From assembly GCA_035699805.1 (NCBI GenBank), contig DASSPF010000041.1:1-60843 (forward strand): a stretch of DNA of 60,843 nt, given 5' to 3'. The notes beneath the pieces are model-generated. The model was not told the origin of the DNA. It was given only the letters and a program-made list of their open reading frames with translations, and searched no databases. Numbering within the stretch: position 1 is the stretch's first letter; each line of letters begins with the position of its first letter. A program made the translations under genes and the position numbers. Shown here piece after piece: positions 45,043 through 56,446 of this stretch. This DNA is from Candidatus Limnocylindria bacterium. Lineage in GTDB: Bacteria > Chloroflexota > Limnocylindria > P2-11E.

Positions 45043-45852
45043 CTAACGCCGTCGGGCGCGTGGGTCCCACGCGCGATAGAGGCCGTCGGCGAGCAGGTTC
45101 GCGCCCAGCACGGTCGCGGCGAGGGCCACTCCCGGGAAGACCGACATCCACCAGGCCAGACGCAGGAAGGGCTGCGCGTCGTTCAGCATCCGGCCCCAGC
45201 TCACCACGCTGCGGTCGCCCACGCCGAGGAACGCGAGGCCGGCCTCCACGAGGATGGCGGCGCCGACCTGGAGGGCCGCGCTGGTGACCGCGATCGCGAC
45301 GGCGTTCGGCAGCAGGTGTGCGCGGATGATGCGCAGGTCCGAGCAGCCGAGCGCGCGCGCCGCGAGCACGAACTCGCGCTCGCGCAGCGACAGGACCTGC
45401 GAACGGAGCAGGCGCGCGGTCTGCGGCCAGAACGTGAGGCCGAGGAGGAACGTGAGCGCGAGGAAGCTCGGACCGAAGAGCGCGGCGACGAGCACCGCGA
45501 GGAAGAAGCGCGGCACCGTCTGGACCAGCTCGGTCAGGCGCATCAGCAGGTCGTCGACCAGGCCGCCGCGGTAGCCGGCCACCAGGCCGACGGCCACCCC
45601 CACGAGCGCCGAGGTCAGCGCGGCGACCATCCCGACGATGAGCGACACCCGGCCGCCGTGGAGGACGCCCGAGAGGACATCGCGGCCGAGGTCGTCGGTC
45701 CCGAAGGGATGCGCCGGCGATGGCGGCTGCAGCGCGCGCGCGTCGGTGGCGCCCGGCGCGGTCGGGATGAGCCACGCCCCAGCGGTCGCGAGCAGCGCGA
45801 TGGCCGCGAGCAGCCCGAGGCCCGCGAGGAGAGGGAACGACGCGCCCTTCAC
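45043..45852 (-). CDS. Peptide/nickel ABC transporter permease (DppC/OppC-like)
   Basis: HPFGTDDLGRDVLS and the EAA-type loop AARALGCSD. The GTG at 45852 overlaps the stop of the upstream permease gene. Confidence 0.88.
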   Translation of the reverse strand: MKGASFPLLAGLGLLAAIALLATAGAWLIPTAPGATDARALQPPSPAHPFGTDDLGRDVLSGVLHGGRVSLIVGMVAALTSALVGVAVGLVAGYRGGLVDDLLMRLTELVQTVPRFFLAVLVAALFGPSFLALTFLLGLTFWPQTARLLRSQVLSLREREFVLAARALGCSDLRIIRAHLLPNAVAIAVTSAALQVGAAILVEAGLAFLGVGDRSVVSWGRMLNDAQPFLRLAWWMSVFPGVALAATVLGANLLADGLYRAWDPRARRR

Positions 45853-46775
45853 CGCAGGCGCACCCGCGGGTCCAGACGCGCGTAGGTGAGGTCGGTGACG
45901 AGGTTCGCGACGACGACCGAGACCGCGGCCATGAGGAAGATCGCCAGGAGCAGCGGGTAGTCGCGCGCGAGGGTCGCGTCGTACAGGAGGCGCCCCACGC
46001 CGGGCCAGGCGAAGATGATCTCGGTCAGCACCGCGCCGGTGAGCAGGGTGCCGATGTGGCCTCCGACCACGGTCACCACCGGAAGGAGCACGTTCGGCAG
46101 CGCGTGGCGGCTCACGATGCGCGCGGCGGCGAGGCCCTTCGCGGCGGCGGTGCGCGCGTAGTCCTCGTGCATGGCGTCGCGCAGGCCGCTCCGCGCGAGA
46201 CGCGCGACGAGCGCCAGCTGCAGGAGGCCGAGGGTGACCGCCGGGAGCACGAGGTGGTGCGCGATGTCCGCGGCGTGGCCCAGGCCGTCGGGCGGTGTGC
46301 GCACGCTGGCCATGCCCTGCACCGGGAACCAGCCGAGCGTCACGGCGAAGGCGAGGACGAGCATCTGTCCGAGCCAGAACGCCGGGAGCGCACCGCCGAG
46401 GAGCGTGAGGATCGTCACCGCGTGATCGGCGGGCCGGTCGGCGTGCCGCGCACCGACGAGCGCCGCCGCGATGCCACCGGCGGTCGACAGGACCAGGGCG
46501 GTGACCATGAGGAGCAGCGTGGCCGGGATGCGATCGGCGACGACCTCGAGGGCAGACTGGCGGTGCGCGTAGGAGAAGCCGAGGTCTCCGCGCGCGAGGT
46601 TGCCGAGATACACCACGAACTGCTCCAGGAGCGGCCGGTCCAGGCCGAACTTGCGGCGCATCTCGGCGTAATACCGCGCGTCGCCCGACTCGCCGGCGAA
46701 GATCGTCACCGGGTCGCCCGGCGCAAGATGCACCAGAAGGAACGCGATCACCAGGATCGCGAACACCACCGGCAC
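45849..46775 (-). CDS. Peptide/nickel ABC transporter permease (DppB/OppB-like)
   Basis: HLAPGDPV and YARTAAAKGL motifs. The family-typical N-terminus (L)SRYVVRRLLQA lies upstream of the GTG at 46775 and is only reachable from the CTG at 46811. Confidence 0.85.
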   Translation of the reverse strand: MPVVFAILVIAFLLVHLAPGDPVTIFAGESGDARYYAEMRRKFGLDRPLLEQFVVYLGNLARGDLGFSYAHRQSALEVVADRIPATLLLMVTALVLSTAGGIAAALVGARHADRPADHAVTILTLLGGALPAFWLGQMLVLAFAVTLGWFPVQGMASVRTPPDGLGHAADIAHHLVLPAVTLGLLQLALVARLARSGLRDAMHEDYARTAAAKGLAAARIVSRHALPNVLLPVVTVVGGHIGTLLTGAVLTEIIFAWPGVGRLLYDATLARDYPLLLAIFLMAAVSVVVANLVTDLTYARLDPRVRLR

Positions 46776-46817
46776 CGCCTGGAGCAGTCGCCGGACGACG
46801 TAGCGGCTCAGGGTGTT

Positions 46818-48425
46818 CTACTGCCGCGAGGCAGCTTCCGCGAGGTTCCCGCTCCAGTAGTAGAGATCCCTGAAGGACTTCTGCCAGGCGCGATACCCCT
46901 CGGTCTCGATCAGGCCGAGGTAGGGGAGGTCCTTCGCCACCTGGTCCTGGATCTCGAAGTAGGCCTTCGCCCGGTCGGATTTCTCGACCGCGGCGACCGC
47001 CTTGTCGAAGCTCTCGTCGACCTTCGGGTTGCGGTACGCCGCACCATTGGAGAAGAGGACGGGGCCGATGTTCGACGACACGTACATGCGCCGGACGCCG
47101 ATCTCGGGGTCGGGGCCGTTGCAGTACGACGCGAAGCCCAGGTCGAAGTCCCGCTTGATGAACACCCGCTGGTTCGCGGCATTCACCTCGAGCGCCGCTA
47201 GCTGCAGGTCCACCCCGACCTTCGCCAGGTCGGCCTTCATGAGCTCGCCGTACTTGGCGAATCCGGTCGCGTGCACGAACGTGACCTTGAAGCGCATGCC
47301 GTCGGCGCCCTTGGCGAGGCCGGCCTGATCGAGGAGCGCATTCGCCTTCGCCGTGTCGAGCGGGTACTGCTGGACGCTCGGGTTGTGTGCCCAGCCGATC
47401 GCGCTCGAGATCGCCGCCGTTGCGACCTTGCCCTGACCGAACTGGATCTCGGCGAGCATCTTGTTCCGGTCGATCGCGTGGGCGAACGCCTGACGCACCT
47501 CGGCCTTGTTCACGTTCGGACGCTCGAGATTGAAGATGAGCGTGGTGATGCAGAACGAGCCGCCCGACCCGGCGCCGCTCTTGGTGATGGTGTACTTGTC
47601 GCTCTGCCGCAGCCGGGCGAGGTCCGGCCCCGGGACGCCGGAGAGGTAATCGACCTCGCCGCGCTCGAGCGCGGCCACCTGGGTCGCGGCCTGGGGGATG
47701 ATCTTGAACACGAGCTCGTCGAGGTAGGGAAGGCCCGGCTTGAAGTAGTCGGGGTTGCGTGTCATGCGTACGACGTCCCCCTTCGTGTACGCCGCGAGCT
47801 TGAACGGGCCGGTGCCCACGGGCTTGAGGTTCGCCTCGGCCGTGGTGGGGTCCTTCCCCTCGTAGATGTGCTTCGCGACGATCGGCGCCTCGACCACGTC
47901 CAGACGCTGGAGCAGAGGCCCGTAGGGCTGGGTGAAGCGCATCACGACCGTGCTCGGGTCGGGTGTGTCGATGCCCGCGAGGACCGCCTCCAGGCCGGCC
48001 TTCGTTCGCGCGTGGTACTTGAGGAGCACCTGCTCGAAGGAGAACTTCACGTCGGCGGAGCTGAAGGCCGTCCCGTCGTGCCACTTCACGTTCTGGCGGA
48101 GCTTGAAGGTGTACGTCCTCCCGCCGTCGCTGACCGTCCAGGACTGCGCGAGGTCCGGCTTCGGCTCGAGCTTCTCGTCCAGGAAGACCAGCCCGTTGTA
48201 GAGGTTGTCGGCGACGAAGTGCGTGCCGCCGGCGGTCGTGATGGCCGGGTTGAAGTGCCCGGGGTCGGCGCCGGCCGCGACGACCAGCGTTCCCCCGCGC
48301 TGGGGAGTGGCGGCCGCGCTCGCGGTGGCCGCGCCCGAGGGGCTCGGCGCGGACGATGGCGGGGCGCACGCGATCGCGAGCAGGACGGTGAGCAGCGCGA
48401 AGGCGAGGAAGCGGCGGACCGGCAT
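46818..48425 (-). CDS. Peptide/nickel ABC transporter substrate-binding lipoprotein (family 5)
   Basis: The lipobox is LLAIAC. The body is family-5 SBP-like (WHDGTAFSSADVKFSF). Confidence 0.88.
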   Translation of the reverse strand: MPVRRFLAFALLTVLLAIACAPPSSAPSPSGAATASAAATPQRGGTLVVAAGADPGHFNPAITTAGGTHFVADNLYNGLVFLDEKLEPKPDLAQSWTVSDGGRTYTFKLRQNVKWHDGTAFSSADVKFSFEQVLLKYHARTKAGLEAVLAGIDTPDPSTVVMRFTQPYGPLLQRLDVVEAPIVAKHIYEGKDPTTAEANLKPVGTGPFKLAAYTKGDVVRMTRNPDYFKPGLPYLDELVFKIIPQAATQVAALERGEVDYLSGVPGPDLARLRQSDKYTITKSGAGSGGSFCITTLIFNLERPNVNKAEVRQAFAHAIDRNKMLAEIQFGQGKVATAAISSAIGWAHNPSVQQYPLDTAKANALLDQAGLAKGADGMRFKVTFVHATGFAKYGELMKADLAKVGVDLQLAALEVNAANQRVFIKRDFDLGFASYCNGPDPEIGVRRMYVSSNIGPVLFSNGAAYRNPKVDESFDKAVAAVEKSDRAKAYFEIQDQVAKDLPYLGLIETEGYRAWQKSFRDLYYWSGNLAEAASRQ

Positions 48426-48581
48426 GTTCGTTCCCCCTCCCTGGTGTGCTGGCGCCGAGTGGCGGCATAGGGTAAGGCGCGCCCGGAAGACCCGACAGTC
48501 TCACTGGCAGGTTCACCGCGCCCGCGCTCGCTGCCTCGGCGGGTGTGAAGAGCCCGATCACTCGTAGTACCTTTCACATCC

Positions 48582-49025
48582 ATGTCGGGGGGTGGAGCGT
48601 TGCTCCGCGTCAGCGCGCTGGCAAAGCGCGCGGAAGTCCCGCCACGCACTGTCAGGTTCTACGCCGACATCGGGCTGTTGCGGCCGGCCAAGCGCGGCGA
48701 CAACGGGTATCGCTTCTTCGGCCCCGATGCGGTCGAGCGCGTGCAGCTCCTGCGTCGGGCCACGCGTCTGGGGGTCTCGCTCCGGGAGATCTCGCGCGTC
48801 CTCGAGATCGCGGAGCGCGCAAACTGCGCCGACGCTCATCAGGCGTTCGCGCAGGCGCTGCGCGAACGCATCGCGCAGGTGGATCGGAGCATCGGCGAGC
48901 TGCGGGCCACCCGCGAGCAGCTCGTGGACCTCGCGGCCGAGAGCGACGTCGGGTGCACGGATGCCTTCTGCCTCTGCCGGACGAGCCCGCACGACGCGGT
49001 GCCGATCACCTGGAGGGAGCGATGA
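48582..49025 (+). CDS. MerR-family regulator with a Cys-rich C-terminus
   Basis: The HTH is LRVSALAKRAEVPPRTVRFYADIGLL. The C-terminal cysteines are ...ERANCADAH... and ...GCTDAFCLC.... There is an ATGA overlap with the cooC-like gene. Confidence 0.85.
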   Translation: MSGGGALLRVSALAKRAEVPPRTVRFYADIGLLRPAKRGDNGYRFFGPDAVERVQLLRRATRLGVSLREISRVLEIAERANCADAHQAFAQALRERIAQVDRSIGELRATREQLVDLAAESDVGCTDAFCLCRTSPHDAVPITWRER

Positions 49026-49774
49026 AGCTCGCCGTGGCCGGCAAGGGCGGCGCGGGCAAGACGACGATCTCCGCCACGCTCGCGCGATCGCTCGCGCGCG
49101 CGGGCCGCACGGTCCTCGCGATCGACGGCGACCCCAACGCGAACCTCGGGATCGCGCTCGGTGTCCCCGCCGCGGATCTGGAGCGCCAGCCGCGCGTGCC
49201 CCGCGACCTCCTCGAGCAGCGCGACGGCGACGCCTGGCTGAAGGTCCCGGCCGACCAGCTGCGCCGCGACTACGCCATCGCTGCGCCCGACGGCGTGCAG
49301 CTCATGGCGGTCACCACCGTCGACCATGCCGGCACCGGCTGACTGTGCTCGGCGCACCGGTCGGTGCGCGGGGTGGCGGGGGCGCTCCTCGGCGCGAAGA
49401 GCGAGGTGAACCTCCTCGACATGGAGGCGTCCATCGAGCATCTCGGCCGCGGGACGCCCAAGGGTCTCGACACGCTGCTCATCGTGGTGGAGCCGTACTA
49501 CCGCGCGCTCGAGACCGCGGGTCGGATGGCGCCGCTGGCGCGCGAGCTCGGCATCCCGGGGATCCTCGCCATCGCGAATAAGCTCCGCGACGCCGAGGAC
49601 GCGCGGGTCATCCGCGACTACTGCGCGTCGCACCAGCTCGAGCTCGTCGCCGAGCTGCCGTTCGACGAAGACGTTCGCGACGCCGATCGCCGCGGGCGTG
49701 CGGTCATCGATCACGCACCCGAGTCGAGCACGGTCCGGCTCGTCGGCGAGCTCGGCCGTCAGCTGATGCGGTAG
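49022..49774 (+). CDS. cooC: CooC-type (MinD/ParA-fold) nickel-insertion maturation ATPase with one in-frame TGA (49340-49342); candidate selenocysteine codon, otherwise a pseudogene
   Basis: The deviant Walker A is MKLAVAGKGGAGKTT, and LLDMEASIEHLGRGT is present. The two ORFs in the track (ending at 49342, starting at 49364) share one frame and are separated by a single TGA. The TGA sits at GTG-[TGA]-L-C, which aligns with the CxC metal motif. Confidence 0.7.
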
Positions 49775-49785
49775 AGGAGGACGCC

Positions 49786-51042
49786 ATGGCGGTGACCATC
49801 GAGCCGACACCGTCGCGGGCCACCCGGAGCGCGCCGCCGTTCGAGCAGACCGGCAATGTGGCCGGGGCCTCGCAGGAGCAGTGGGCGCGCGCGGCGATCG
49901 AGCCACGCGGGAAGCCGACCGGCCTGGGCGGGGCGTTCGAGCGGGTGCACGTGTTCTGGCTCGCGGGCATGAGCTGCGATGGCTGCAGCATCGCCGTGCT
50001 CGGCGCGACCGCACCTGCGGTCGAGAGCCTGCTCACCGGGACGCTGCCCGGCCTTCCGCTGCTGCTGCTCCACCACACCGCGATCCAGGTGGAGGCGGGG
50101 GAGGCCTACATGGAGCCCCTGCGCAAGGCGGCGGCGGGGACGCTCGAGGATCCCTACGTGATCGTCTACGAGGGCTCCGTCGCGGACGAGGACAAGCTCG
50201 GCTCCGGGTACTGGTCGGCCATCGGCGAAGAGCTGGACGGGCAGGGGGACAAGATCCAGGTGCCCTCGGCCGTGTGGCTGCGCCGCCTCGCTCCGGGTGC
50301 GGCCGCGGTCATCGCCATCGGGACCTGCGCGACGTGGGGCGGCATCCCCGCCGCGATCAACAACGTGACCGGTTCGATGAGCGTGGCGGACTGCCTGGGC
50401 AAGGACTACCGCAGCGCCCTCGGCCTACCGGTGGTGAATATCCCCGGCTGCTCGCCGGTGGGCGACAACTTCACCGAGACGGTCGCGGTGACGCTGCTGT
50501 TCCTCCAGGGCCTGGGCCCCGCTCCGGAGATCGACATGCACGGCCGCCCGGCCTGGCTCTTCGGCGAAACGGTGCACCGGACGTGCACTCGCGCCGGCTT
50601 CTACGAGGAGGGCACCTTCGCCAAGCGCTACGGCGACAAGGAGTGCCTGGTGGAGATCGGCTGCTGGGGGCCGGTGGTGGACTGCAACATCACCTCCCGC
50701 GGCGCGATCAACCACCTGGGCGGCTGCATGAACGTGGGTGGCGTGTGCATCGGCTGCACCATGCCGGGGTTCCCGGACAAGTTCGCCCCGTTCTACAAGG
50801 CCCCGCCGGGGACGCTCGTGTCCGGCACCGGATCGCGGATGATCGGCGGCTTCGTGCGGCCGCTCCGGCGCATCACCGAGCGCAAGATGAACCGGCAGGT
50901 GAACTGGGATCGCGAGGGCGACGTCTCGAGTGGGTGGGGACTGCCCGAACAGCCGAGCGTCGTCGACAAGAGCATCCAGAAGTTCTACGACTGGCTACGT
51001 CATCGCGGTTCGTTCGGTACGTCGAAGAAAGCCGGGTCCTGA
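49786..51042 (+). CDS. [NiFe]-hydrogenase small subunit (no Tat signal)
   Basis: The Fe-S ligand motifs are GMSCDGCS, GTCATWGGIP, PGCSPVGDN, CLVEIGCWGP and GGVCIGCTMPGFPD. The N-terminus lacks an RRxF twin-arginine motif. GAGGAGGA lies upstream. Confidence 0.92.
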   Translation: MAVTIEPTPSRATRSAPPFEQTGNVAGASQEQWARAAIEPRGKPTGLGGAFERVHVFWLAGMSCDGCSIAVLGATAPAVESLLTGTLPGLPLLLLHHTAIQVEAGEAYMEPLRKAAAGTLEDPYVIVYEGSVADEDKLGSGYWSAIGEELDGQGDKIQVPSAVWLRRLAPGAAAVIAIGTCATWGGIPAAINNVTGSMSVADCLGKDYRSALGLPVVNIPGCSPVGDNFTETVAVTLLFLQGLGPAPEIDMHGRPAWLFGETVHRTCTRAGFYEEGTFAKRYGDKECLVEIGCWGPVVDCNITSRGAINHLGGCMNVGGVCIGCTMPGFPDKFAPFYKAPPGTLVSGTGSRMIGGFVRPLRRITERKMNRQVNWDREGDVSSGWGLPEQPSVVDKSIQKFYDWLRHRGSFGTSKKAGS

Positions 51043-51056
51043 ACGAGGAGGATGAG

Positions 51057-51362
51057 ATGGATCTGAACATGACGGTCGCGCAGTTCTGGTGGCTGATCCT
51101 GGGCCTCGGTCTGGTCATCGTGCTCGTCGTCGCGGCGTTGCTCGTCGCGATCATCCTGGCGGCCCGGCGCATCGAGCGCGCGGCGGCGGACATCTGGACC
51201 GTGGGCAAGCAGATCGCGGGCAACACCGTGCAGATCTGGCAGCTCGGTGAGACGAACGCCACGGCGAAGGCGATCCACGGCGTCGCGCTCGACATCGCCG
51301 GCGGCGCGAAATCGATCGACGAGCGCCTCGCGAAGCTGCCCCAGGTCCTTGGAAAGGGCTGA
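51057..51362 (+). CDS. Small single-pass membrane protein, paralog 1 of 4 (type A)
   Basis: 101 aa. The TM helix is FWWLILGLGLVIVLVVAALLVAIIL, followed by a helical Ala/Gly-rich tail with an IAGNTVQI motif. GAGGAGGATGAG lies upstream. Confidence 0.7.
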   Translation: MDLNMTVAQFWWLILGLGLVIVLVVAALLVAIILAARRIERAAADIWTVGKQIAGNTVQIWQLGETNATAKAIHGVALDIAGGAKSIDERLAKLPQVLGKG

Positions 51363-51365
51363 CCG

Positions 51366-51671
51366 ATGGACCAGATCACGCTGCTCTGGTGGCTCACCGG
51401 GATCTATCTCGCGATCCTCGTGCTCGTGCTCGCCTTCTCCGTCGGTAGCGTCCTGTTCTATCTCTGGCGCATCGGGACGACCCTCGGCGCCATCGCCGAT
51501 GGCCTCAGCGCGGTCGAAGGGCACACGCGTCCGCTCGGCGAGAAGATCGGAGCGGCGAACGCCGGCCTCGGCGCGATCGCCGGCTCGCTCTCCTCGGCTC
51601 GCGACCACCTCGTCGCGACGGATGCCGCGCTCGCCACGCTCACCAGCGGCGGAGAGGAGCGTGTGGCCTGA
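51366..51671 (+). CDS. Small single-pass membrane protein, paralog 2 of 4 (type B)
   Basis: 101 aa. The TM helix is LLWWLTGIYLAILVLVLAFSVGSVLF. The tail carries LSSARDHL. There is a 3-nt gap to the previous gene. Confidence 0.7.
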   Translation: MDQITLLWWLTGIYLAILVLVLAFSVGSVLFYLWRIGTTLGAIADGLSAVEGHTRPLGEKIGAANAGLGAIAGSLSSARDHLVATDAALATLTSGGEERVA

Positions 51672-51973
51672 TGGAGGCGATCATCGTCATCTGGTGGATC
51701 ACGCTCGCCGTCGCGCTCGTGCTGACGGTCATCGCGCTCGGGATCATCACGCGCTTCGTCCTCCACGCCCGCGAGATCGACCGGCTGGCGCGCATCACCC
51801 TGAAAGCGGCGCAGGGCGTGGCCGGGAACACCGCGAACATCGCGCTCCTCGACACGCTGCTGGCCCACGCCACCGCGCTGGCCGCGACCTCCGCCGCGAT
51901 CGACGGTGTCGCGGCGCGGATCCACGGTCACGGCGGCGCGGTCGTCCGTGCGCTCTCGGGAGGTCGCCGCTGA
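51671..51973 (+). CDS. Small single-pass membrane protein, paralog 3 of 4 (type A)
   Basis: 100 aa. The TM helix is VIWWITLAVALVLTVIALGII. The tail carries VAGNTANI. There is a TGATG overlap with the previous gene. Confidence 0.7.
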   Translation: MEAIIVIWWITLAVALVLTVIALGIITRFVLHAREIDRLARITLKAAQGVAGNTANIALLDTLLAHATALAATSAAIDGVAARIHGHGGAVVRALSGGRR

Positions 51974-52269
51974 TGGATGTCCTTCTCGCGCTGCTCACCG
52001 GGATCGAGCTCATCATCGTCCTCGCGGTGGTCTCGTACGGCGTCCAGACCATCACGCACGCGCTGAAGGGCATCAACCGTTCGATGGCGAAGATCTCGTG
52101 GGGTGTCCGTGCGATCGAGAGCGAGACCGCCCTGCTCACCGCCAACGTGCCCCCGCTCATCGACACGTTCAAGGGACTCGACGACGGCGCCAAGATCATC
52201 GCCGAGCGCCTTTCGTCCGCGGAGCGCCATCTCGCTTCCGCGGCCCAGCTGCTCGGCGCCGAGAAATGA
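51973..52269 (+). CDS. Small single-pass membrane protein, paralog 4 of 4 (type B)
   Basis: 98 aa. The TM helix is LLALLTGIELIIVLAVVSYGV. The tail carries LSSAERHL. There is a TGATG overlap with the previous gene. Confidence 0.7.
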   Translation: MDVLLALLTGIELIIVLAVVSYGVQTITHALKGINRSMAKISWGVRAIESETALLTANVPPLIDTFKGLDDGAKIIAERLSSAERHLASAAQLLGAEK

Positions 52270-54182: not shown

Positions 54183-54690
54183 CGATGCCGCCACCGCCGC
54201 CGTCGACGTGACGCCGGCGCGCGTCCTGGTCGCGGGCGTGGGGTACACCAACCTCGCCGACCATTCGGCGGGACTGCACGCGATCGACCGGCTCGGCCGG
54301 ATCGGCGACCACGTGGACGTGGAGGACTTCTCGTACGGCGCGATCGATGTCCTCTTCACGCTGCAGCGGCGTCCTCCGTACCGCAAGGCCGTCTTCATCG
54401 CGGCGGTCGAGCGCGGCGATCCGGTGGGCTCGGTCCGCTGGCAGCGCTGGGAGCGTCCCGCGATCTCGGCGGCCGAGCTCCAGGAGAAGGTCGCCGAGGC
54501 GGTCACCGGCGTGGTGAGCCTGGACAACCTCCTGCACATCACCGCGCACTTCGGCGGGCTGCCGGAGGACGTGGTCGTGGTCGAGATCGAGCCCGGCGAG
54601 GAGCGCTACGGGCCGGCCCCCGGACCGGTCGTGGACGCCGCGATCACCGAGGCGCTGCGCCTCGCGCGGCACGAAGCGGGGATCGCCTGA
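54172..54690 (+). CDS. Divergent HyaD/HybD-like hydrogenase maturation protease paralog
   Basis: VLVAGVGYTNLADHSAG resembles the GxGNxxxxDDGxG motif but is degenerate. The family's (V/I)DA Asp position reads FIAAV. The start could be 54172 or the GTG at 54208. Confidence 0.5.
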   Translation: MSPSDAATAAVDVTPARVLVAGVGYTNLADHSAGLHAIDRLGRIGDHVDVEDFSYGAIDVLFTLQRRPPYRKAVFIAAVERGDPVGSVRWQRWERPAISAAELQEKVAEAVTGVVSLDNLLHITAHFGGLPEDVVVVEIEPGEERYGPAPGPVVDAAITEALRLARHEAGIA

Positions 54691-55058
54691 TGGACGCCGC
54701 GCCGATCCGCGCGAAGGACGAGGTGCTCCAGGTCATGTACTGGATGCTCGGCGAGGGCATCGCCCACGAGGTGACGCCGTCGTACCTCGCGCGCTTCCTG
54801 GTGATCCCGGAAGCGGACGTCGCCGCCGCGCTCGCGCAGCTCGGCCGCGAGCGTCTCGCCCTCCGAGGCGGCGCCGCGGACTCCTACCGGCTGTCGGAGG
54901 ACGGCATCCACGAGGGGGGACGGCGCTTCAAGGACGAATTCAGCGACCTCACCAAGCAGCCGCACGGTGAGTGCGCGCCCGGCTGCTGGTGCCATAAGCC
55001 CGAGGGGGAGGGGAAGCCGTGCCCGAGCACGACGCGCGCGGCCGAACATGCCCACTGA
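54690..55058 (+). CDS. Hydrogenase-cluster hypothetical protein (winged-helix-like N-domain, Cys/His-rich C-terminus)
   Basis: 122 aa. The C-terminus contains HGECAPGCWCH. There is a TGATG overlap with the upstream gene. Confidence 0.6.
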   Translation: MDAAPIRAKDEVLQVMYWMLGEGIAHEVTPSYLARFLVIPEADVAAALAQLGRERLALRGGAADSYRLSEDGIHEGGRRFKDEFSDLTKQPHGECAPGCWCHKPEGEGKPCPSTTRAAEHAH

Positions 55059-55719
55059 TCCGCTGGACCTCGACGCGGAGCTCGCGCGGCTCGAGCGCAT
55101 CATCGGCACGTTCGAGAACGAGACCGACGACGCCGTGCGCGAGCGGGTGTTCGAGCTCCTCGAGAGCGTGGATGCGGTCCACCGTCGTCTGATCTGGACG
55201 CTGGCCGAGCGCCTCTACAACGAGCGCGCGGAGCTCTTCGATCGTTTGCTCGAGGACCCGCTCACCAGCGTGCTGTTCGAGATGTACGGGCTCGTCGCGC
55301 CGTCGCGGCGCGCCGAGGAGGGCGGCGACGCGCCGGCGGCACCGGTCGCGATGGTCGGGCTCGCCGATCTCGAGGCGACCATCCCGGCCCCGCTCGGCTG
55401 GTACGACGCCGGGTCCGCCGACGAGGTGCGCGCCGACGCGCTTGTCGCGCGCGACGTGGAGGGCGAGCGCGTGCTCCTGGTGCGCGCCCCCGGCGGCGTG
55501 AAGGCGTACCGGGACCGCTGTCCCGAGGCCCCGATGCCCCTGAACGCCGCCGTGGTGCGTGACGGGCTCATCCTGTGTCCGTGGCATGACTGCCGGTTCG
55601 ATGTGGAGACCGGCGAGCGGCGTGATCGCGCCGGCGAGGGGCTCGCGAGCATCCCGGTCACCGTCCGCGACGGTGCGGTGCGTCTGGGTCTGCGCATCGG
55701 CCGGCGGTCCGCGGCATGA
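55048..55719 (+). CDS. Hydrogenase-cluster protein with a C-terminal Rieske-like domain (first His ligand replaced)
   Basis: C-P-E-x16-C-P-W-H has the exact Rieske CxH-x16-CxxH spacing, but Glu replaces the first His. The N-domain is helical. Confidence 0.65.
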   Translation: MPTDPLDLDAELARLERIIGTFENETDDAVRERVFELLESVDAVHRRLIWTLAERLYNERAELFDRLLEDPLTSVLFEMYGLVAPSRRAEEGGDAPAAPVAMVGLADLEATIPAPLGWYDAGSADEVRADALVARDVEGERVLLVRAPGGVKAYRDRCPEAPMPLNAAVVRDGLILCPWHDCRFDVETGERRDRAGEGLASIPVTVRDGAVRLGLRIGRRSAA

Positions 55720-56204
55720 CCCGCACGCTCGTCGTCGGCTTCGGCAACGAGCTGCGCGCCGACGACGGCGTGGGGCTTGCCGTCGTGCGGAGCCTTGCCG
55801 CCGCGGGTCTGCCCGACGGCGTGCGGATCGCCGAGGTCGGTATCGGTGGCATCGCGCTGCTGCACGAGCTCCAGGCCGGGTGCGATCGCCTGGTCATCGT
55901 GGACGCGGTGCGCCGCGGTGGCGCCCCGGGGACCGTCTATGTGCTCACTCCGGTGCTGCCCGCGCCGGGCCGCGCGCTCGACGAGCACAACGCGCTCGCG
56001 GACGCGCACTTCGCGGAGCCCTACGCCGCGCTGGTGCTCGCGCGCTCGCTCGGCGTGCTGCCGGCGGACATCAGCGTCGTAGGCATCGAGGCCGCGGAGA
56101 CGGACGAGCTCACCACCGAGCTGACGCCCGCGGTGGCGCGCGCGGTCGCGGTCGCCGCCGATCGCGTGCGGCGTCTTGCCGCGGCCGCGCGGGAGGCCGC
56201 CTGA
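55716..56204 (+). CDS. Hydrogenase maturation endopeptidase (HyaD/HybD family, canonical)
   Basis: LVVGFGNELRADDGVG and LVIVDAV motifs. Confidence 0.88.
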   Translation: MTRTLVVGFGNELRADDGVGLAVVRSLAAAGLPDGVRIAEVGIGGIALLHELQAGCDRLVIVDAVRRGGAPGTVYVLTPVLPAPGRALDEHNALADAHFAEPYAALVLARSLGVLPADISVVGIEAAETDELTTELTPAVARAVAVAADRVRRLAAAAREAA

Positions 56205-56446
56205 TGTGCCAGGGGATCCCGCGTCCGGTGCTCGCGGTCGCGCCGGGCCGGCTGCGCGTCGACATCGACGGGCGGCCCACGTGGGTCGCCGCGGGCGGGG
56301 CGCTCCGCGACGTGACAGCGGGAGAGCACGTCGTCGTGTACGCGGGCGTCGCGCTCGACCGCGTGTCGCCGGAGGAGGCCAGCGAGCAGCTGCGCTTTCT
56401 GCGCGAGCTCGAGGAGCTCTTCCCCGCCACGGAAGACGGCGCATGA
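56204..56446 (+). CDS. hypC: Hydrogenase assembly chaperone HypC/HupF
   Basis: The N-terminal MCQGIP motif is invariant in HypC. The protein is 80 aa. There is a TGATG overlap with the upstream gene. Confidence 0.88.
   Translation: MCQGIPRPVLAVAPGRLRVDIDGRPTWVAAGGALRDVTAGEHVVVYAGVALDRVSPEEASEQLRFLRELEELFPATEDGA

Follow-up and report, generated by a model that had tools for sequence, protein, structure and literature searches.

Four short open reading frames (ORFs), P1–P4, separate the small-subunit and large-subunit genes of a [NiFe]-hydrogenase (HylS and HylL) in contig DASSPF010000041.1 of a Candidatus Limnocylindria bacterium, whose 60,843 nucleotides (nt) form the window analysed here. 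P1–P4 are probably HylTM subunits of a group 1l hydrogenase, present in a four-gene, cysteine-free variant and forming a coiled-coil stalk that docks the HylS–HylL pair (HylSL) at the membrane. Group 1l was defined by Ortiz et al. (bioRxiv 10.1101/2020.08.06.239558, Suppl. Note 1), who found the subunit genes 'often' split by five ORFs for single-pass proteins, HylTM1–5; the original prediction for the window, made from the DNA alone, had correctly linked the split gene pair to this group. Its further proposal, that the interposed proteins act as a membrane anchor or stalk, fits the long helices, the N-out/C-in topology and the heptads that we predict, as well as the linkage to hylS and hylL, but it does not stand as a new idea, having already been published by Ortiz et al. 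Both the gene arrangement and the stalk hypothesis are thus in the literature, and no new category is opened here.

The published HylTM1–5 share 12–30% identity with one another, and HylTM4 carries a C-terminal tri-cysteine (tri-Cys) motif, from which Fe–S binding was proposed (Ortiz et al., bioRxiv 10.1101/2020.08.06.239558); PMC9561532 gives the same description of these proteins. An AlphaFold3 model of the Hymenobacter roseosalivarius enzyme (PMC13554262, 2026) shows HylTM1–5 as intertwined helices in two tube-like scaffolds that tether (HylLS)2 to the membrane, with the tubes placed near the distal cluster. Group 1l enzymes are reported to be the dominant H2-oxidising enzymes of Antarctic desert soils (bioRxiv 10.1101/2020.08.06.239558; PMC13554262).

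P1–P4 are real genes. All four lie on the plus strand at the coordinates first noted for them (Table 1), and the junctions are as tight as had been described, with a 3-nt gap between P1 and P2 and one-base overlaps (ATGA/TGATG) at P2/P3 and P3/P4. Pfam identifies the flanking genes as those for a small and a large [NiFe]-hydrogenase subunit, and a GAGGAGGA box lies upstream of P1. The G+C content at third codon positions (GC3) of the called frames is 0.89–0.94, next to 0.93 and 0.96 for the hydrogenase genes. Ratios of nonsynonymous to synonymous substitution rates (dN/dS), calculated with orthologues in three related clusters, are 0.28–0.70 for P1–P4 and 0.26 for HylL. The same four genes, of the same lengths, were called independently by public gene callers in five separate assemblies. 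GC3, dN/dS, synteny and independent gene calls together exclude a reading of P1–P4 as spurious ORFs.

At the N-terminus of each protein lies a single hydrophobic stretch, made up of 25–34 uncharged residues, which includes a WW pair in P1–P3 but not in P4, as had been observed. The motifs of the soluble parts are ARRIE..A.DIW.VGK.IAGNT..IW.L..TN in P1, IADGLSAVEGHTRPL in P2, AREIDRLA...L.AA.GVAGNT in P3 and KISWGVRAIESET in P4. None of the four proteins contains a cysteine, and there is no histidine inside the transmembrane (TM) cores. Searches of P1–P4 against Pfam and NCBIfam gave nothing above threshold.

The assignment of the window hydrogenase to group 1l is suggested by sequence marks and synteny. 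The closest structures in the Protein Data Bank (PDB) copy searched, which holds no group 1l structure, are those of a group 1h enzyme: 5AA5_C for HylL (expect value (E) 5e-149, 43.5% identity) and 5AA5_A for HylS (E 1e-101, 47.6% identity). HylL is 42.7–43.5% identical to 5AA5 and 40–42% identical to plasmid-borne group 1h enzymes, the only type that a search of a plasmid collection returned; the large subunits of groups 1l and 1h are published as being less than 40% identical. Identity rises to 58–80% when HylL is compared with its counterparts in all loci that have interposed TM genes, and is 58–61% for clusters with five such genes, those of Mackay Glacier metagenome-assembled genomes (MAGs) among them. 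A genome scan with HylL gave 32 loci at 55–80% identity. They span Chloroflexota, Gemmatimonadota, Deinococcota, Acidobacteriota and Actinomycetota, and include MGR_bin229 and MGR_bin293, two MAGs of the Ortiz study; no Hymenobacter locus is among the 32. The L1 motif (Table 1) is identical in 53/53 full-length large subunits and L2 in 51 of them, and these 53 proteins are 40.5–46.2% identical to 5AA5.

In the small subunit, the proximal-cluster motif reads C-D-G-C where 5AA5 reads C-D-G-D, and CDGC is found in 63/64 related HylS proteins. Four cysteines at the proximal cluster are a mark of group 1l, an aspartate taking one of these positions in group 1h (Ortiz et al.). The N-terminus of HylS shows no recognisable twin-arginine motif. 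The C-terminus extends only about 40 residues past the aligned end of 5AA5 and of HhyS of group 1h, against a published extension, relative to group 1h, of about 100 residues in H. roseosalivarius HylS. The genes for the Rieske protein HylE, HupD, HypC, a CbiA-type protein and a maturation protease are all present in the cluster, and these gene types match those in the legend of the group 1l cluster figure of Ortiz et al.

To place P1–P4 among related proteins, we built profiles for each position and annotated 112 fetched loci together with the window; 80 of the loci came from a metagenome search with the TM protein alone. Positions in four-gene clusters are denoted C1–C4 (P1–P4 in the window) and those in five-gene clusters G1–G5. 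A survey of the intervening ORFs in related clusters, which had been suggested as a check, revealed two fixed layouts. With S and L for hylS and hylL, the order S-C1-C2-C3-C4-L is found in 25 complete loci, counting the window, and S-G1-G2-G3-G4-G5-L in 37. The four genes are syntenic across these 25 loci, and the window has four members rather than the five of the published description. Apart from two loci, the remaining TM-bearing loci are truncations of either layout at contig ends.

Linkage to the hydrogenase genes is strict. Among the 80 loci found with the TM protein, 72 show hylS and/or hylL, the other eight being contigs of about 1–1.7 kb, and within the loci annotated the family was never seen in any other context. 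The two loci that depart from both layouts keep this linkage: a Blastocatellia MAG has four TM genes (L015; 2622–3865) upstream of an adjacent S–L pair, and an Acidimicrobiales MAG has three (L027; 3809–4392, minus strand) divergent from an adjacent S–L pair. From these two arrangements we conclude that interposition is usual but not obligatory.

The TM proteins fall into two families. Within the window, the A-B-A-B alternation that had been read from the translations is borne out by pairwise comparison: P1 and P3 match with a blastp E of 1e-7 (shuffle z 7.9) and P2 and P4 with an E of 6e-9 (z 9.5), and cross-type pairs are weak. Profile–profile comparison sorts the nine positions into type A (C1, C3, G1, G2 and G4) and type B (C2, C4, G3 and G5). 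When the TM helix is removed, probabilities are still 87–99% inside A and 97–99% inside B, and just 2/20 A–B pairs of soluble-part profiles exceed 80%. A deeper common origin of A and B is therefore unproven.

Across the two layouts, the four-gene positions pair one-to-one with four of the five positions, with hhalign probabilities of 99.6% for C1–G2, 99.0% for C4–G3, 98.9% for C2–G5 and 98.3% for C3–G4. These relationships persist once the TM helix is removed. The mapping is reciprocal: the counts for the four-gene proteins are given in Table 1, and in the other direction 69/69 (C1–G2), 43/43 (C2–G5), 47/49 (C3–G4) and 57/57 (C4–G3) proteins have their best match on the corresponding profile. 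G1 proteins also match best on C1. In five-gene terms the window therefore reads G2-G5-G4-G3, with no counterpart of G1. The five-gene form reads A-A-B-A-B, and relative to it the two B genes of the window are swapped around a fixed A gene.

This map bears on the origin of the set, which had been ascribed to duplication of a two-gene module. The alternation of A and B holds across the whole family. The duplication idea has to be modified, since a recent tandem duplication is excluded: other phyla have, in their five-gene clusters, a separate orthologue of each paralogue. Because the four paralogues each correspond one-to-one to a five-gene orthologue, the duplications must be ancient and precede the split between the layouts. 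The map may also connect our positions to the published names. The accession of H. roseosalivarius HylL (SMB94678) is lower than that of HylS (SMB94698), from which the published numbering would run from HylL to HylS, making HylTM4 the equivalent of G2.

The two layouts differ in further features. Of the G2 proteins of five-gene clusters, 61/71 have a CxxCxxC tail, compared with 0/38 C1 proteins. HylS of four-gene clusters, compared over its C-terminus (50900–51042 in the window), ends shortly past a conserved 'SGWG...FY..(L/W)R' segment. Most five-gene HylS proteins (loci L016–L025 and L050–L112) continue for about 40 further residues ('PGRP.G.E.RFWG.DRPG...DY.D'), which are not found in four-TM clusters; at least two five-gene clusters are exceptions, namely L024 (Deinococcus), with five TM genes and a short tail, and L097. 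A fifth subunit thus tends to come with both the tri-Cys tail and the longer form of the HylS tail.

The tri-Cys motif raises the question of whether the HylTM proteins form an electron-relay module with a cofactor of their own. The Fe–S binding proposed for HylTM4 by Ortiz et al. and the frequency of CxxCxxC among G2 proteins speak for such a relay. In the window the sequence contradicts it: since P1–P4 have neither a cysteine nor a TM-core histidine, a HylTM-borne redox cofactor is excluded there. No C1 protein has the motif, and the Cys-less four-gene clusters are otherwise complete and conserved, from which it follows that a HylTM-borne cofactor is not essential to the family. We therefore consider a relay function very improbable. 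Electrons in the window must exit from the distal cluster directly, via HylE, or to a quinone that the stalk presents.

Structure prediction favours a stalk built of long helices. AlphaFold2, run with family alignments, models P1 as a single helix spanning residues 2–97 (predicted local distance difference test score (pLDDT) 83) and P2 as a single helix spanning residues 3–94 (pLDDT 88), in agreement with the TM helix that had been expected; neither model contains a hairpin or a globular domain. In each of P1–P4 there are no lysines or arginines ahead of the TM segment and 1–4 within the 15 residues after it, from which an N-out/C-in topology is predicted by the positive-inside rule. In all nine subfamilies the hydrophobicity of the soluble part, averaged over the alignment, is strongest at a period of 3.40–3.50 residues. 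Such a period is the signature of coiled-coil heptads. In six of the nine subfamilies no more than 2.2% of shuffled sequences reach the observed power; the signal is weaker in C1 (5%), G3 (7%) and G2 (20%). Profile searches of the PDB returned coiled-coil proteins only, including designed coiled-coil assemblies, the signalling domain of a methyl-accepting chemotaxis protein (MCP) and tropomyosin; neither cytochrome b nor HucM, the stalk protein of the mycobacterial hydrogenase Huc, was among the matches, HucM not even at E ≤ 1.

A cytochrome b subunit of the HupC type (PF01292, Ni_hydr_CYTB) was considered as an identity for P1–P4 and rejected: there is no Pfam or NCBIfam match, and each protein has one TM helix, not four.

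A bundle of such helices could do more than hold the enzyme in place. It might form a hydrophobic tube, similar to HucM, that lifts quinone from the bilayer to the distal Fe–S cluster. The AlphaFold3 assemblies of HylTM1–5 are called 'tube-like' and lie near that cluster (PMC13554262), and at a stalk length of about 90 Å the enzyme would otherwise sit a long way from the quinone pool. Alanine, glycine and leucine abound in the soluble parts, and the best PDB matches of the type-B profile are the designed coiled coils sc-apCC-6 and sc-apCC-4 (E 1e-15). Some members of this design series are helical barrels whose central channel binds lipophilic dyes. What the designed barrels share with the profile is composition and heptad pattern rather than homology, however, with tropomyosin and generic coiled coils matching too. 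Four helices usually pack without a lumen, and HucM shows no sequence similarity to the HylTM proteins at E ≤ 1. We regard a quinone-conducting tube as unlikely.

Less likely still is a function of the HylTM proteins as assembly, targeting or regulatory factors, for instance membrane-tethered chaperones or coiled coils resembling DUF948, that are not subunits of the mature enzyme. Matches to DUF948 (PF06103) were obtained below threshold for 30/62 B-type and 5/62 A-type proteins, with best E values of 0.0014–0.0016, and one source labels a HylTM member 'YoxC'. Maturation genes are abundant in the cluster, and the dN/dS values are fairly relaxed. The TM genes, however, are translationally coupled, present in equal copy number and located between two structural genes, and the TM set co-varies with the length of the HylS tail, which suggests a physical partnership with HylS. 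The DUF948 signal itself may be generic coiled-coil likeness. In an exhaustive search of 1.84 billion representative proteins, the B profile matched 847 clusters with E ≤ 1e-3, of which 207 had E ≤ 1e-10. Nearly all of the 150 best matches listed are 73–127 residues long, and the few long ones are generic coiled-coil proteins; the PDB matches of the profile include designed coiled coils, so weak matches are unreliable.

For the docking stalk that we favour, the following arrangement can be proposed. Each protein would be a continuous helix of about 95 residues. Starting from an N-terminus on the outside, the first 30 or so residues would span the membrane, and the 60 or so that follow would reach about 90 Å into the cytoplasm, still helical, amphipathic and patterned in heptads. 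The two helices of type A (P1 and P3) would pack with the two of type B (P2 and P4) as a heteromeric coiled-coil bundle, the stalk, and this bundle would dock the cytoplasmic HylSL core, which lacks a signal for twin-arginine translocation (Tat), with the conserved extension at the C-terminus of HylS as the probable contact. With HylSL held at the membrane, electrons from H2 could reach the quinone pool.

Several points weigh against this proposal. The mutual assembly of P1–P4, their stoichiometry, the contact with HylS and the role in anchoring and electron coupling are what we infer from the features described above. The proteins were equated with the published HylTM1–5 by matching the description, that is, five genes, a tri-Cys tail on one of them and Antarctic MAGs belonging to the Ortiz study, and the literature searched contains no experimental work on any HylTM. 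The dN/dS values of P1–P4 are looser than that of HylL. The monomer models have a low predicted template modelling score (0.39), as expected of a lone helix. Finally, the Rieske protein HylE of the cluster could itself carry electrons, and the stalk may therefore be purely mechanical.

It is possible, though we hold this more tentatively than the docking function, that the minimal stalk consists of two A and two B subunits without a cofactor, that the extra A subunit, the tri-Cys motif and the long HylS tail constitute one optional add-on, and that the stalk alone couples the cytoplasmic, high-affinity enzyme to the quinone pool. If this is true, a cofactor-free stalk, possibly a quinone-conducting tube, would represent a mode of membrane coupling distinct from both cytochrome b and HucM. 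The four-gene, Cys-free variant is in effect a natural experiment, showing that a large conserved clade does without the fifth subunit and the tri-Cys motif. It argues against an Fe–S relay borne by the HylTM proteins, and the choice of models narrows to anchoring or a conduit for quinone. The A and B classes, together with the orthology map, provide a rational basis for multimer modelling, for subunit names that apply across phyla and for the choice of genes to delete.

The genes of the cluster are listed in Table 1. Their order is MerR, the CooC/CbiA-type ATPase, HylS, P1–P4, HylL, a protease-like gene, a 122-residue ORF, the Rieske gene, HycI/HupD and HypC.

Table 1 Annotated genes of the hydrogenase cluster in the window
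Feature	Position	Strand	Evidence
MerR-family regulator, head of cluster	48582..49025	+	Pfam MerR_1, E 3e-17
CooC-type P-loop metal-insertion ATPase	49022..49774	+	In-frame TGA 49340–49342, hairpin 49352–49369
HylS, [NiFe]-hydrogenase small subunit, 418 residues	49786..51042	+	Pfam NiFe_hyd_SSU_C and Oxidored_q6
P1, type-A HylTM (probable), 101 residues, G2 orthologue	51057..51362	+	34/34 C1 proteins best on G2 profile
P2, type-B HylTM (probable), 101 residues, G5 orthologue	51366..51671	+	32/32 best on G5 profile
P3, type-A HylTM (probable), 100 residues, G4 orthologue	51671..51973	+	30/31 best on G4 profile
P4, type-B HylTM (probable), 98 residues, G3 orthologue	51973..52269	+	30/30 best on G3 profile
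HylL, [NiFe]-hydrogenase large subunit, 633 residues	52281..54182	+	Pfam NiFeSe_Hases; L1 RACGVCGGVH, L2 DPCMPCTTH
Divergent hydrogenase maturation protease-like protein, 172 residues	54172..54690	+	NCBIfam TIGR00072, E 1.5e-11, just under cut-off
HylE-like Rieske [2Fe-2S] protein	54967..55719	+	Pfam Rieske, E 1e-10, residues 145–219
HupD/HycI-type maturation endopeptidase	55716..56204	+	Pfam HycI, E 6e-14
HypC/HupF chaperone	56204..56446	+	Pfam HupF_HypC, E 4e-11

Two genes of the cluster resemble those of maturation proteases. The first, which shares 11 nt with the end of hylL, has no Pfam match; the second is a clear HycI/HupD. Between the first of these and the Rieske gene lies the 122-residue ORF (54690–55058), which has a Cys-rich C-terminus (CAPGCWCHKPEGEGKPCP) and no family match. 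The actual start of the Rieske gene is probably an ATG near 55045. Upstream of the cluster, on the minus strand, 45043–48561 carries putative ABC-type peptide/solute transport genes, including a 535-residue ORF (46818–48425) assigned by eye from its translation as substrate-binding-protein-like. The same region also contains very long overlapping ORFs in alternative frames, as is typical of high-GC DNA. A search of the whole window against Rfam gave zero matches, and no tRNAs were found in it.

The CooC-type ATPase, whose best PDB match is CooC1 (3KJE, E 2e-29), is a candidate selenoprotein. Its in-frame TGA aligns with the first cysteine of the C-x-C metal-binding motif of CooC, and the conserved protein sequence continues in frame past this codon. 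The orthologous genes of related loci have TGA at this codon in 12 loci and TGC or TGT in 12. A hairpin follows within about 10–18 nt of the TGA (GCGCACC-GGTC-GGTGCGC in the window). It is stronger in genes with TGA than in those with a cysteine codon (mean −13.2 versus −7.0 kcal/mol; Mann–Whitney p 4e-4), and five sequences show a compensatory GC-to-AU change. These features make up the classical signature of a selenocysteine (Sec)/cysteine site. The words CooC, CbiA and P-loop do not occur in a 2026 review of prokaryotic selenoproteins. Because the window holds neither Sec machinery nor a tRNA-Sec, the call is provisional.

Compared with known systems, P1–P4 resemble DUF948/YoxC proteins (PF06103) in having a TM helix at the N-terminus and, after it, a coiled-coil stretch of about 60–70 residues, but all HylTM matches to that family lie under the Pfam cut-off. 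The cytochrome b subunits HupC, HyaC and HoxZ (PF01292) are likewise membrane partners of group 1 uptake hydrogenases. They differ from P1–P4, which have one TM helix instead of four and no haem-ligating histidine in the TM core, and whose enzyme is on the cytoplasmic side. Group 1m clusters (PMC9561532) also encode small single-TM proteins, of 82–92 residues, but their hydrogenase subunit genes, small and large, adjoin each other, and just two such proteins are present.

A functional analogy may be drawn to the HucM stalk of Huc (group 2a; 7UTD/7UUS), which also serves a Tat-less, cytoplasm-facing, O2-tolerant uptake hydrogenase through a helical stalk and not a cytochrome b. In contrast to HucM, to which no sequence similarity was detected, the window has four different single-pass proteins from two families. 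HucM in the published Huc structure is reported to be a single protein whose homotetramer makes up a tube and lacks classical TM helices.

The closest likeness is to HylTM1–5 of H. roseosalivarius, single-pass proteins of about 100 residues encoded between hylS and hylL. The group 1l locus of that organism shares with the window the neighbouring genes for CbiA/CooC, the Rieske protein HylE, HupD and HypC, as well as the four-Cys proximal cluster of HylS. Within the five-gene clusters, four of the five proteins are one-to-one profile orthologues of P1–P4. The window differs from this five-gene system in having four genes, without a counterpart of G1 and without the tri-Cys motif on the P1/G2 member, in a HylS tail shorter by about 40 residues, and in the exchanged positions of its B genes, P2 corresponding to G5 and P4 to G3.

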